A DNA stretch of 42,160 nucleotides, from assembly GCA_964348785.1 (NCBI GenBank), contig CAYGDO010000007.1, forward strand, positions 1 to 42,160, given 5' to 3'. Of this stretch, positions 26,677-30,097 are shown piece after piece. Source of the DNA: an uncultured Candidatus Saccharibacteria bacterium (lineage in GTDB: Bacteria; Patescibacteriota; Minisyncoccia; Phycocordibacterales; 2-02-FULL-43-11). Numbering within the stretch: the first letter of the stretch is position 1; every line of letters begins with the position of its first letter. The position numbers and the translations under genes are program-made. Under the pieces are notes generated by a model, which worked only from the letters and a program-made list of their open reading frames with translations, had not been told where the DNA came from and ran no database searches.

Positions 26677-27030
26677 CTAATTAGCTGGGGTTGGAGGTAC
26701 AGAAGCCTCTACTTTCTTTTCTGCCGGAGCATTCTTTGCCTCCTTTCTTTTTGAGACGGCCATTTTTCTCGGTAAAACGTTTATTTTCTTTCCAGAAATT
26801 ATTTTCTTTTCAACTAAAAAATTGTGAACAGTTCCTGTAACTTGTGCACCTTTTGAAATCCAATATTTAACTCTGTCAGCGTCAACTTCTTTTATTTTGG
26901 AAACCGGATTATATGAACCTAAAATTTCTAAAAACTTACCGCTTTTTGTGCTATTTTTTGAGTCAGTAACAAGCACCCTAAATACAGGGATATTCTTTCT
27001 GCCGACTCTTTGTAATCTAATCTTCAACAT
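26677..27030 (-). CDS. rpsP: 30S ribosomal protein S16
   Basis: MLKIRLQRVGRKNIPVFRVLV, EILGSYNP, WISKGAQ; start moved to ATG 27030. Confidence 0.97.
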   Translation of the reverse strand: MLKIRLQRVGRKNIPVFRVLVTDSKNSTKSGKFLEILGSYNPVSKIKEVDADRVKYWISKGAQVTGTVHNFLVEKKIISGKKINVLPRKMAVSKRKEAKNAPAEKKVEASVPPTPAN

Positions 27031-27127: not shown

Positions 27128-27454
27128 TCAATCGCAAGAATCCCAGAATTTAGAATCAAATCTGGAATAACGCCTGATAATTTTTCTCTCATATTCATCC
27201 AACTCTCCACGCTTAGCCCGACATTCAATACATTGACACCGAGAGAGATTCCTACAAACACAAAAACAAAAAGCGAACATTAATATAAGTCCAAAGATTG
27301 CCACCCCCAACCCTGTATAAAAAAACTTTTCAGGATCTGTTAGCTCTTCAAACCTATGTTCTGATGGTCCACTGCCCGCGGATTGTGCAAAAACAGAAGT
27401 GAGACTCAAGCAAAAAACCAAAAAGGCCAGTCCAATGTTTCGCGAAGTCTTCAT
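27128..27454 (-). CDS. small hypothetical membrane protein with Cys-rich tail
   Basis: Signal peptide-like start, one TM, CFCVCRNLSRCQCIEC; own promoter and terminator. Confidence 0.75.
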   Translation of the reverse strand: MKTSRNIGLAFLVFCLSLTSVFAQSAGSGPSEHRFEELTDPEKFFYTGLGVAIFGLILMFAFCFCVCRNLSRCQCIECRAKRGELDEYERKIIRRYSRFDSKFWDSCD

Positions 27455-27530
27455 ATCGCTTCCTAATCTCTCCAGTTAGTTGTTAGTGAAGATTTTATAT
27501 TACAAAAATCTTCGTACGTTTTCTAAAAAT

Positions 27531-27559
27531 ATTATAAATGAAAATACATGTCGTGTCAA
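27531..27559 (-). promoter_or_regulatory. perfect consensus sigma70 promoter
   Basis: TTGACA (27559-27554), 17 nt, TATAAT (27536-27531). Confidence 0.85.
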
Positions 27560-27601
27560 TTTTTTAGTTTGTAATAAAACTTAGAAGCTTATAGTTTTTA
27601 A

Positions 27602-27759
27602 AGCGGTATGTACAAGGACGACTTTCTCAAGGTCAATTGGGCTGGAACCAAAAACCGCAAACCTCGCGAAAATAAAAACTCCGGCAACACTGCCAAAGAA
27701 AGCCTTCTGGATTAGTCCCGCCCCCATCATTCGCAAGCCACCAATAAGGTGGCTTTTTT
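27602..27759 (+). ncRNA. putative small RNA or 35-aa sORF transcript
   Basis: GC-richer island between -10-like TATAGT (27590) and terminator 27735-27759; ends complementary; sORF 27608-27715. Confidence 0.4.
27735..27759 (+). terminator. plus-strand intrinsic terminator
   Basis: AAGCCACC/GGTGGCTT stem then T tract; U tract only on the plus strand. Confidence 0.8.
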
Positions 27760-27817
27760 ATCCGCCAGCTGACCGACGACAGTCTACATTTTGGATATTT
27801 GATTTTTAATTTTTGAT

Positions 27818-30097
27818 TTATTTAGCCACAGCAACCGCCTCTTCAAACTCAATAGAAAGCAATTTAGAAAGACCGTCTTGACCCATAGTCACGCCATATA
27901 AAACACCGGCACGGGACATTGTTTCCCTGTTATGAGTGATTAAAATAAGTTGAGATAATTTTGAAAGATTTTCTATCATATCACCGTATTTTCTTGAATT
28001 GGCCTCATCAAGAGCGGCATCTGTTTCATCTAAAATAATAAAAGGTGGCGGATTGACTTGGGAAATAGCAAACAAAAGTGCAATGGAAGTTAAAGCTCTT
28101 TCACCTCCTGACAACATTTCCAATCCTTTAATATTTTTTCTCGGCAACTTTACATCTATCTCAATACCCAATTCGGCTTTTCCTTCTTCTTGTTCATCGC
28201 CAACAGATTCCATATTTATTTCAATACTTTCATCAGATACCTTAATCTTTGGCCCCTCCTCAACAACTTTTATTGATGCCTTTCCTCCTCCAAACATCAA
28301 ACAAAAAAAATCATTGAATTGAAAATTTATTTTTTCAATACCCGTTTTAAATTCCTCTTCCAACTTATTATCCAACTCCTCTATGAGTTTCCTCAAAGAC
28401 TCTGAGGAAAGCTCCAGATCAGCAATTTCTTTAGCTAAAAATTCCTCCCTTTCAGAAACCTCCATAAATTCTTTCATTACATCTTCACCGCCACCAATTC
28501 CAGCATCTTCAATTCTAATTTTAAGTTTTTGAATATTTCGCAATCTTTCCTCTTGTTTAGTTCTCTCCTCAATTCCCAAATTTTCAACAGCACTTCCATC
28601 AATTTTCTTCAATTCCTCATCAAAAAGATAAACATTTCTCCCAATCAAAGAAAAACCTTCTCTGATTTCTCTTTCAAATTCCTCTTTCAGGATAAAATTT
28701 TTTGATTTCTGTTCTTTTAAATTAGAAATTTTTACATACAAATCTTTCTGTTCCGACATTAAAGAAAAAAGTTCTCTCTCTGCGTCTCTAGTTTTATCTT
28801 TTTCTTTTTCTATATCATTCTTTATACCCTCATAAGTTGAATAAAGTTCTGATTCTCTAGAAATTGTATTTGTTATTTTCTCATCTAAATCATTTTTTGC
28901 TCTCAATAATTGATCTATATCTTTTTCAAAAGAAACCTCTTTTACATTACCCGAGGTAGAAATTTTGTTTGAAAAAGAATCTGTTATTTCTACAATTCTT
29001 GAATAAATAACCTTTACTCCTTCTAAATTATTTATACTCTCAAGTTCTTTGGCGGTTGCTTTTATTCTTTCTAACAAACCACGGACTTCTTTTGCTAAAA
29101 CCGTGGCGGTATCTTCAGCCTCCGCCTCTTTCTTGGCTTTCTCTATCAAGCGCTTTAAGCCAGAAATCTCACCTTCTATTCTTCCAACTTCTCTCGTTAA
29201 TTTATCCCTTTCTTGCCTTGTAATGCTAAGCTCACTCTCAACCTCTAGAAGTTTTTTTCTTTTATCATCAATTATTGGCGAATCAGCCATTGCCTTTCTC
29301 TCTTCAGTTATCCTTCTCTCAACTTCCACCAATTTCTGCTCTGGAATCTTAGACTCCAAATCTAAATTTTTACCTTGTCTGTCAACGTATATTTTTTCCA
29401 AAAAAAGATACTCTTTATAAGCCAAAGCCAACTCCTCTTGCATCTGTTTTGTCTTCTCGACTTTCTCCACCTGCTTTTTTAAAAATTTAATATGAGGGGC
29501 AATTTCCCTTCTCAAAGATTCTACCTGCTTTATATTTTCTTCAGTTTTTTCCAACTTCCTGGCACTCTCTTTCTTTTTGTATTGATAAATTTTAAGTCCA
29601 AGAGCGTCTTCAATCATCTCTCTTCTTTCTTTAGAATTGGCTGACAAAATTCTATCGGCTTCACCTTGAGAAATAATATGATGTCCTGACGATCCAATGT
29701 GAGCGCCTGCTAAAGTCTCCGAAATATCTTTGAGACGAACAAGAGTGCCGTTGATGAAATATTCAGACAAAGAATCTCTGTAAACCGCTCTTTCAAGAGC
29801 GACCTCATCAAAATCAACTCCAATTTGTCTTTTTGAATTATCAAAAATTATTTTTACAGAAGCTCTGTTTGAACGAGCGACCGTTCCATTTCCTCCATTC
29901 CAAATGAGATCTTCACCTCTTTTTCCTCTCATGGATTTTAGAGACTGTTCTCCGAGAACAAATCTAAAAGCTTCGGCCACGTTTGATTTTCCAGAACCAT
30001 TTGGACCAACAATTGCGGTAATAGACGTCTTGAAATCAAGATTGGTTTTTTTGGCAAACGATTTGAAGCCTGCTATTTCAAGACTTTTTAAATACAT
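27818..30097 (-). CDS. smc: short SMC-family ATPase
   Basis: MYLKSLEIAGFKSF, GPNGSGKSN, LSGGE, ILDETDAALD; only 759 aa; near rnc. Confidence 0.9.
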   Translation of the reverse strand: MYLKSLEIAGFKSFAKKTNLDFKTSITAIVGPNGSGKSNVAEAFRFVLGEQSLKSMRGKRGEDLIWNGGNGTVARSNRASVKIIFDNSKRQIGVDFDEVALERAVYRDSLSEYFINGTLVRLKDISETLAGAHIGSSGHHIISQGEADRILSANSKERREMIEDALGLKIYQYKKKESARKLEKTEENIKQVESLRREIAPHIKFLKKQVEKVEKTKQMQEELALAYKEYLFLEKIYVDRQGKNLDLESKIPEQKLVEVERRITEERKAMADSPIIDDKRKKLLEVESELSITRQERDKLTREVGRIEGEISGLKRLIEKAKKEAEAEDTATVLAKEVRGLLERIKATAKELESINNLEGVKVIYSRIVEITDSFSNKISTSGNVKEVSFEKDIDQLLRAKNDLDEKITNTISRESELYSTYEGIKNDIEKEKDKTRDAERELFSLMSEQKDLYVKISNLKEQKSKNFILKEEFEREIREGFSLIGRNVYLFDEELKKIDGSAVENLGIEERTKQEERLRNIQKLKIRIEDAGIGGGEDVMKEFMEVSEREEFLAKEIADLELSSESLRKLIEELDNKLEEEFKTGIEKINFQFNDFFCLMFGGGKASIKVVEEGPKIKVSDESIEINMESVGDEQEEGKAELGIEIDVKLPRKNIKGLEMLSGGERALTSIALLFAISQVNPPPFIILDETDAALDEANSRKYGDMIENLSKLSQLILITHNRETMSRAGVLYGVTMGQDGLSKLLSIEFEEAVAVAK

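Follow-up and report, generated by a model that had tools for sequence, protein, structure and literature searches.

Introduction

Most characterized bacterial small proteins work by binding to a larger partner. Some small RNAs also encode a peptide, as is the case for the dual-function sRNAs SgrS/SgrT, RNAIII/delta-haemolysin and SR1/SR1P, and in type I toxin-antitoxin pairs of the ibs/sib type the antisense RNA overlaps fully. Leaderless and near-leaderless mRNAs are well described in Actinobacteria, Deinococcus-Thermus and archaea. To our knowledge, the small proteins of Patescibacteria are essentially unstudied, and we know of no member of this lineage that grows alone. Reference material for bacterial small proteins is available for E. 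coli (small-protein sets; bioRxiv 10.1101/511675), and in the GMSC smORF catalogue (PMC11364881) and sORFdb (PMC11796252).

Here we describe a small transcription unit between smc and rpsP in a genome of the Patescibacteria (792 kb, 11 contigs). The unit is located in a stretch of DNA of 42,160 nt, which was analyzed as a whole and is referred to as the window. A sequence-only reading of the window had called it either a structured RNA or a 35-aa peptide. Our analysis resolves this ambiguous call in favor of a small protein that is confined to one lineage of Patescibacteria and kept by purifying selection: the region 27569–27761 (plus strand) is, with high probability, a monocistronic small-protein gene with a weak sigma-70-type promoter, a near-leaderless ORF and an intrinsic terminator.

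Results

Genomic Context of the Small ORF

All long ORFs between 19.4 and 34.7 kb of the window are located on the minus strand (Table 1). The nearest homologues of the Smc protein in a large protein collection carry the label Candidatus Taylorbacteria. The small ORF is part of a GC-richer island that had already been recognized in the sequence-only reading and is readily found at that place, with a GC content of 46–49% at 27600–27800 vs 21–25% at 27450–27600 and a genome mean of 36%. The element is single-copy in the genome (BLAST and nhmmer); as the complementarity of its ends is not kept either, a mobile or MITE-like element was rejected.

On the other side of the AT-rich stretch, a 108-aa ORF is encoded on the minus strand. 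It is preceded by a perfect TTGACA-17-TATAAT promoter (27559–27531, minus strand), which points away from the small ORF, and followed by its own terminator (27118–27099, minus strand). This ORF is a species-specific insertion; it is missing in the three nearest relatives, has no homologue among 80 related loci, and does not appear in the gene calls for identical contigs of other samples.

Table 1. Features at and around the small ORF in the window, with the peptides encoded at the three related loci.
Feature	Position	Strand	Remarks
RNase III gene	31482–30790	-	
101-aa ORF	between RNase III and smc	-	
smc	30097–27818	-	
Intrinsic terminator	27735–27761	+	AAGCCACC-AATAA-GGTGGCTT followed by T-run; stem-loop 27735–27755
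3' untranslated spacer	27716–27734	+	C-rich in the window; not conserved, 31% mean pairwise identity
Antisense ORF, 49–51 aa, hydrophobic	27730–27584	-	GGUGG 7 nt upstream
Terminator-like hairpin + U-run, antisense in the small ORF	27669–27698	-	possible smc terminator (putative role); also in L115 and L113, not in L114
Second terminator-like hairpin + U-run on the smc strand	27645–27669	-	putative role; antisense of two CGC codons and ACC-AAA-AAC
Small ORF, 35 codons + TAG	27608–27715	+	product MYKDDFLKVNWAGTKNRKPRENKNSGNTAKESLLD; same ORF in L113, L114 and L115
Alternative -10-like box, TAGTTT	27592–27597	+	
-10-like hexamer, TATAGT	27590–27595	+	12 nt 5' of the ATG
-35-like hexamer, TTGTAA	27569–27574	+	putative promoter element
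108-aa ORF	27454–27128	-	signal peptide, one TM segment, Cys-rich tail
rpsP	true ATG at 27030	-	
Peptide of the L115 locus			MHKDDFLKINWAGTKNRKPRGNKNSGNTAKESLLD
Peptide of the L113 locus			MHKDEFLKVNWAGTKNRKHRGHKNSGKVAKENLLY
Peptide of the L114 locus			MNKDDFLRVNWAGTKNRKHRKTNSSGKKAHESRLD

Conservation of a 35-Codon Reading Frame

Closer relatives were identified via Smc (88, 81, and 77% identity; contigs L113, L114, and L115). In all three, the unit is present between smc and rpsP and is antisense to both. The ORF running from the ATG to the TAG, as annotated in the sequence-only reading, is present in the window and has the same length of 35 codons in all four lineages (window, L113, L114, and L115). 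The position of the stop codon is fixed, with a swap between TAG and TGA among the lineages. Across the four peptides 20 residues are invariant, with NWAGTKNRK-R as the core. Mean pairwise identity is 76% within the ORF, 51% upstream of it, and 31% in the next 19 nt of the 3' UTR.

The pattern of substitutions follows the reading frame. The 43 variable columns in the alignment of the four lineages are distributed over codon positions 1, 2 and 3 as 8, 8, and 27, and this third-position excess is significant in a binomial test (P = 7.3e-5) as well as in a chi-square test (P = 2e-4). In the three unsaturated pairs dN/dS is 0.07, 0.16, and 0.17 (Nei-Gojobori). Synonymous sites have reached saturation in the comparisons with L114 (pS 0.8–0.94), and the reading frame is still intact. 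The observed amino-acid identity was attained in none of 20000 column shuffles, and all four frames remained open in just 1.9% of 20000 shuffles. Within a tree of four lineages, which is small, these signals show that purifying selection acts on the protein encoded by the small ORF. The 35-aa protein, one of the two options in the original call, is thus upheld by a length and frame kept in four lineages, three-base periodicity, low dN/dS and a conserved terminator (see below).

The small ORF deviates from the codon usage typical of the genome: it has a high GC3 and contains the rare codons CTC, CTG, TCC, and AGC, as well as two CGC codons, which account for 4% of the Arg codons of the genome. 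Such codons could reflect additional constraints at the RNA level or a recent acquisition. Of the six third positions that are invariant without being forced, five are found within codons 10–16 (codons 10, 12, 13, 15, and 16).

The exact peptide has already been gene-called, nameless, in public gene-call collections, and contigs of other samples that are 100% identical also carry it. The small-protein family is a new orphan, conserved and previously nameless.

Putative Promoter and Translation Initiation

The promoter-like boxes of the sequence-only reading do occur upstream of the small ORF, but score under the threshold of the scanner. When TTGTAA is paired with TATAGT the spacer is short (15 nt), and the combination TTGTAA-17-TAGTTT matches at 7/12 positions. 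In the alignment, the motif T(T/A/G)GTAA is present at a constant distance of 38–39 nt 5' of the ATG in 4/4 lineages. The position of the -10 box is inconsistent among the lineages and the boxes are weak: TATAGT is found 12 nt 5' of the ATG in the window and in L115 (with a TG extension in the latter), and the ATG is preceded at 6 nt by TATAAT in L114 and by TATTAA in L113. The TATAGT box implies a predicted transcription start at approximately 27602–27603, and a leader of 5–6 nt. The 6-nt spacing in L113 and L114 would mean that their mRNA is leaderless.

Initiation signals were surveyed genome-wide at the first ATG of 568 ORFs of at least 150 aa. A -10-like hexamer ended 6, 7, or 8 nt 5' of the ATG in 47, 31, and 24 cases, compared to a background of approximately 7 per position; together these represent 102/568 long ORFs, and a shoulder was visible at 10–12 nt. 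Shine-Dalgarno tetramers were not enriched before these first ATGs, and the small ORF lacks a Shine-Dalgarno sequence as well. The start region of rpsP has the same type of arrangement (TTGCAA-17-TATCTT-7-ATG; 27066–27030, minus strand), which is kept in relatives. In the host genome, first genes generally seem to be initiated without a leader. As Shine-Dalgarno motifs are not enriched and the -10-like hexamers peak at 6–8 nt, leaderless or near-leaderless translation is the expected mode here, and we infer that the small ORF is translated in this way.

An Intrinsic Terminator Conserved in Position but Not in Sequence

The plus-oriented terminator proposed from the sequence was confirmed by folding. 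The stem-loop alone has a z-score of -3.66, with 0/200 shuffles folding equally well, and its U-run is present on the plus strand only. In 4/4 loci a stable hairpin followed by at least six U residues is located within approximately 25 nt 3' of the stop codon. The stems have three unrelated sequences, GCCACC and, in the relatives, UCCAAGG and GCCCGCC, with z-scores from -2.6 to -4.5. This terminator is the sole structural feature of the unit that is conserved among the four loci, and the comparison shows conservation of its function.

Taken together, a weak sigma-70-type promoter would drive a transcript of approximately 155–160 nt (from about 27602 to about 27760, plus strand) that has scarcely any 5' leader, continues into the 35-codon ORF and would end at the intrinsic terminator, convergent with smc.

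Phylogenetic Distribution

Outside the three close relatives no counterpart of the unit was detected in species-level relatives with an Smc identity of approximately 75% or less. BLAST searches with the element against 40 species-level relatives returned noise only, and nhmmer searches found nothing further, either in 80 metagenomic smc loci or elsewhere in the genome. A metagenome scan with Smc yielded only relatives of at most 72% identity, none with the element. At the level of the peptide, a profile gave no match in G001–G004, in 200 genomes of the order or in the whole family, and pattern scans of viral contigs and of 185,579 species genomes were negative as well.

In same-genus species (Smc C-terminus approximately 75% identical), the slot after smc varies: it holds an ORF of 130 or 234 aa in some, and in others a spacer of 75 nt or an unrelated one of 380 nt. 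Relatives at 71% and 69% Smc identity have 75–113 nt between smc and rpsP. The 380-nt smc-rpsP spacer (L009:110–489, genome G003) contains several GC-rich inverted repeats.

The presence in three close relatives and the absence beyond them argue for a gain in one sub-genus clade. Judged by this distribution, the small gene is young and restricted to a sub-genus clade of Candidatus Taylorbacteria. It represents a dated gene gain (present at Smc identities of at least 77%, absent at 71% or less) amid genomes shaped by loss. The possibility that the small ORF is a remnant of a larger gene was rejected, as tblastn searches with the peptide picked up only noise in the genome and in 80 related loci.

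6S RNA and the SRP System in the Host Genome

The sequence-only reading had suggested a 6S-like RNA. Candidates for 6S RNA that score below the threshold of the RF00013 model (23–31.5 bits) were found in three same-genus genomes. These are mutually homologous, and each has a TATAAT promoter, a closing stem, and the motif GCACCCACCUAGA. Their orthologue in the host is located at C4:74574–74760 (nhmmer E = 1.6e-17) and scores 22 bits with RF00013, for which the gathering score is 46.4. Based on this homology, C4:74600–74749 (minus strand; L125:301–450) is the probable 6S RNA of the host, and the RF00013 model under-detects 6S RNA in this lineage. Since the orthologue lies at another locus and RF00013 has no match in the element on either strand, we rejected the identification of the element as 6S RNA. 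The comparison also indicates that a truly conserved sRNA remains detectable at such an evolutionary distance.

In many bacteria ftsY and ffh are located between smc and rpsP (Bacillus-type order). SRP RNA was considered for the element for this reason, and because the order yielded no SRP RNA: RF00169 was found in 0/41 genomes and RF01854 in 0/21 genomes of the order. In the host, smc abuts rpsP at the slot that ftsY/ffh occupy elsewhere. Neither Rfam model had a match in the element region, and no helix-8 motif was found in the host genome. The Ffh M domain (PF02978) was not found. The SRP54-type GTPase domain (PF00448) was not found in the host genome or in 12 relatives, and had a full-length match in only 1/151 sampled genomes of the phylum. 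The DTAGR motif is absent from all ORFs of at least 150 aa, and tblastn with E. coli Ffh gave no match, leaving no Ffh or FtsY detectable in the host genome. By these searches, the host genome and its relatives appear to lack the SRP targeting system. The SRP is usually viewed as near-universal, a view that its absence, if true, contradicts; in the literature, we found no paper that states SRP absence here. SRP RNA was rejected as an identity for the element, which has no helix-8 motif, is not conserved in the genus, unlike 6S RNA, and lies in a genome without Ffh/FtsY.

Alternative Readings of the Locus

From its promoter to its terminator the unit has the size of an sRNA, it forms a GC-rich island inside an AT-rich spacer, and the complementary ends enclosing three hairpins that were pointed out in the sequence-only reading do appear in the minimum free energy (MFE) fold of the plus strand. 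It is nevertheless very improbable that it is a plus-strand non-coding sRNA, novel or 6S-like, in which the ORF is incidental. The plus-strand fold (-41.1 kcal/mol) is no better than that of shuffled sequences (z = -1.66; 14/200 shuffles fold as well), and it is a multibranch structure without a rod and central bubble. RNAalifold on the four transcripts gave a weak consensus of -7.5 kcal/mol with a covariation term of +0.44 and 0 compensatory pairs; the homologues behind smc, the comparison of which had been proposed earlier as a check, show codon conservation and no covariation. When the MFE structure of the window was imposed on the four-locus alignment, 68% of the positions paired vs 67% in shuffled alignments, and 133/500 shuffles were equal or higher. 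The closing helices are approximately 64% paired across the four loci. Complementarity between the two ends has not been conserved, and the 3' half of the closing helix falls in the least conserved segment (31% identity). The substitutions are three-periodic, and the 6S RNA orthologue of the genus sits elsewhere. Rfam at gathering thresholds identified only tRNAs in the window, and a scan of 27440–27830 on both strands, likewise suggested at the outset, found no relevant family at E ≤ 10. The locus illustrates that, in an AT-rich genome, the combination of a GC-rich island, a terminator and a seemingly good fold does not suffice to call an sRNA. The sequence-only reading had also left the strand ambiguous, observing that the minus strand pairs better, and this observation is correct (-56.5 vs -41.1 kcal/mol; z = -2.91). 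The neighboring genes are all on the minus strand too, and the antisense ORF is open in the window and contains one hydrophobic segment. That the minus strand is the functional one, as a hydrophobic peptide, possibly a type I toxin, or as a structured smc 3' UTR, is nonetheless scarcely credible. In L114 the antisense frame is interrupted by a stop (each of the three antisense frames has stops in at least one lineage), and variation gathers at what would be its first codon position. A profile search of 1.8 billion representatives returned one marginal, unrelated match, there was no match in Pfam or NCBIfam, and the G/U-rich composition of this strand accounts for the hydrophobicity. In addition, only on the plus strand is the hairpin at 27735–27755 followed by a U-run. 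A type I toxin on the minus strand was rejected on the basis of the L114 stop and the lack of homologues of the antisense ORF, and the question of the strand is decided in favor of plus.

A further alternative accepts the peptide gene, but has its RNA or antisense act as well, the locus carrying the terminators of smc in an overlap of the mRNA 3' ends. The 3' duplex of the smc and small-gene mRNAs could in that case be a substrate for RNase III, the gene of which clusters with smc. Two hairpin + U-run sites are present on the smc strand in the window (27645–27698), L115 (4235–4288), and L113 (5867–5918), at a chance expectation of 0.3–0.9 such sites per region. The hairpins are made from the antisense of the rare CGC Arg codons and of ACC-AAA-AAC, the unforced invariant third positions cluster in codons 10–16, smc has no other terminator after it, and the minus strand folds better than its shuffles. 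Both sites are missing in L114, however, which keeps the peptide, and where relatives lack the small gene, their smc-rpsP spacer of 75–113 nt contains no terminator, from which it follows that smc needs none. The invariant third positions moreover lie inside the invariant core of the peptide, and with n = 4 sequences their clustering is weak. Mainly because of L114 and the relatives without the small gene, we consider a dual-function locus unlikely. It is likewise doubtful that a gene which arose recently, perhaps de novo, between smc and rpsP serves two purposes, with the plus strand encoding the selected peptide and the minus strand of its codons, the two rare CGC codons and an A-run among them, providing hairpin + U-run terminators for smc; if true, the convergent 3' overlap would couple the stability of the smc and small-gene mRNAs, for instance via RNase III.

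Predicted Properties of the Small Protein

The product of the small-protein gene is a hydrophilic, soluble and basic peptide (net charge +3 to +6). AlphaFold2 modeled a helix at residues 3–15 and an unstructured tail, with low confidence (mean pLDDT 65). In the model, the N-terminal helix is followed by a basic patch (T14-K-N-R-K-x-R20) and a flexible tail. Residues F6, L7, N10, and W11 in the helix are invariant, as is the basic patch. Searches of Pfam, NCBIfam, PHROGs, PADLOC, and PDB sequences gave nothing significant for the peptide; the best PDB sequence match, of 14 residues, is between the basic patch and the basic N-terminus of yeast uL15 (E = 2–10) and is compositional. A RiPP precursor was considered and rejected, as modifying enzymes are absent nearby.

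By analogy with characterized small proteins, the peptide might use its helix and basic patch to bind a larger partner, be it a protein, the ribosome, or a nucleic acid, a suggestion that we make with low confidence. Binding would then involve the F6/L7/N10/W11 face and the T14-K-N-R-K-x-R20 patch.

Discussion

The result is modest by itself and does not reveal a new mechanism. It does provide a target for metaproteomics and binding studies, in the form of the tryptic peptide VNWAGTK and of a peptide of 35 residues that can be synthesized.

Of the described structured RNAs, 6S RNA (RF00013) resembles the element in its similar length and in being a stand-alone promoter-terminator unit. In contrast to 6S RNA, the element lacks a match to the covariance model as well as the rod with a central bubble. 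The similarity to dual-function sRNAs consists of a predicted transcript of approximately 160 nt with a promoter, an intrinsic terminator and a short ORF; the small gene differs from these in having no conserved RNA structure, and its reading frame explains the conservation. As in type I pairs of the ibs/sib type, a small terminated transcript has a hydrophobic small ORF directly opposite to it. Here, however, the hydrophobic ORF is not conserved (L114 stop), and selection acts on the hydrophilic ORF of the plus strand.

With leaderless mRNAs the small gene shares the lack of a Shine-Dalgarno sequence and a -10 box at 6–12 nt from the ATG, a spacing that is enriched genome-wide, whereas the best -10 box in the window and L115 predicts a leader of 5–6 nt, unlike that of strictly leaderless mRNAs. 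The small gene is found in none of the described sORF families, and its homologues are limited to four lineages of one genus. In contrast to the common single-transmembrane small proteins, MYKDDFLKVNWAGTKNRKPRENKNSGNTAKESLLD is hydrophilic and basic, and unlike for the E. coli small-protein sets, the host is an uncultivated member of the Patescibacteria without an experimental system. In its size, its own terminator and putative promoter, its intergenic location and its namelessness in annotation, it nevertheless resembles the stand-alone small proteins of bacteria (at most 50 aa) and, like other sORFs, it is a small gene that can be recognized only by the conservation of its frame and by purifying selection.
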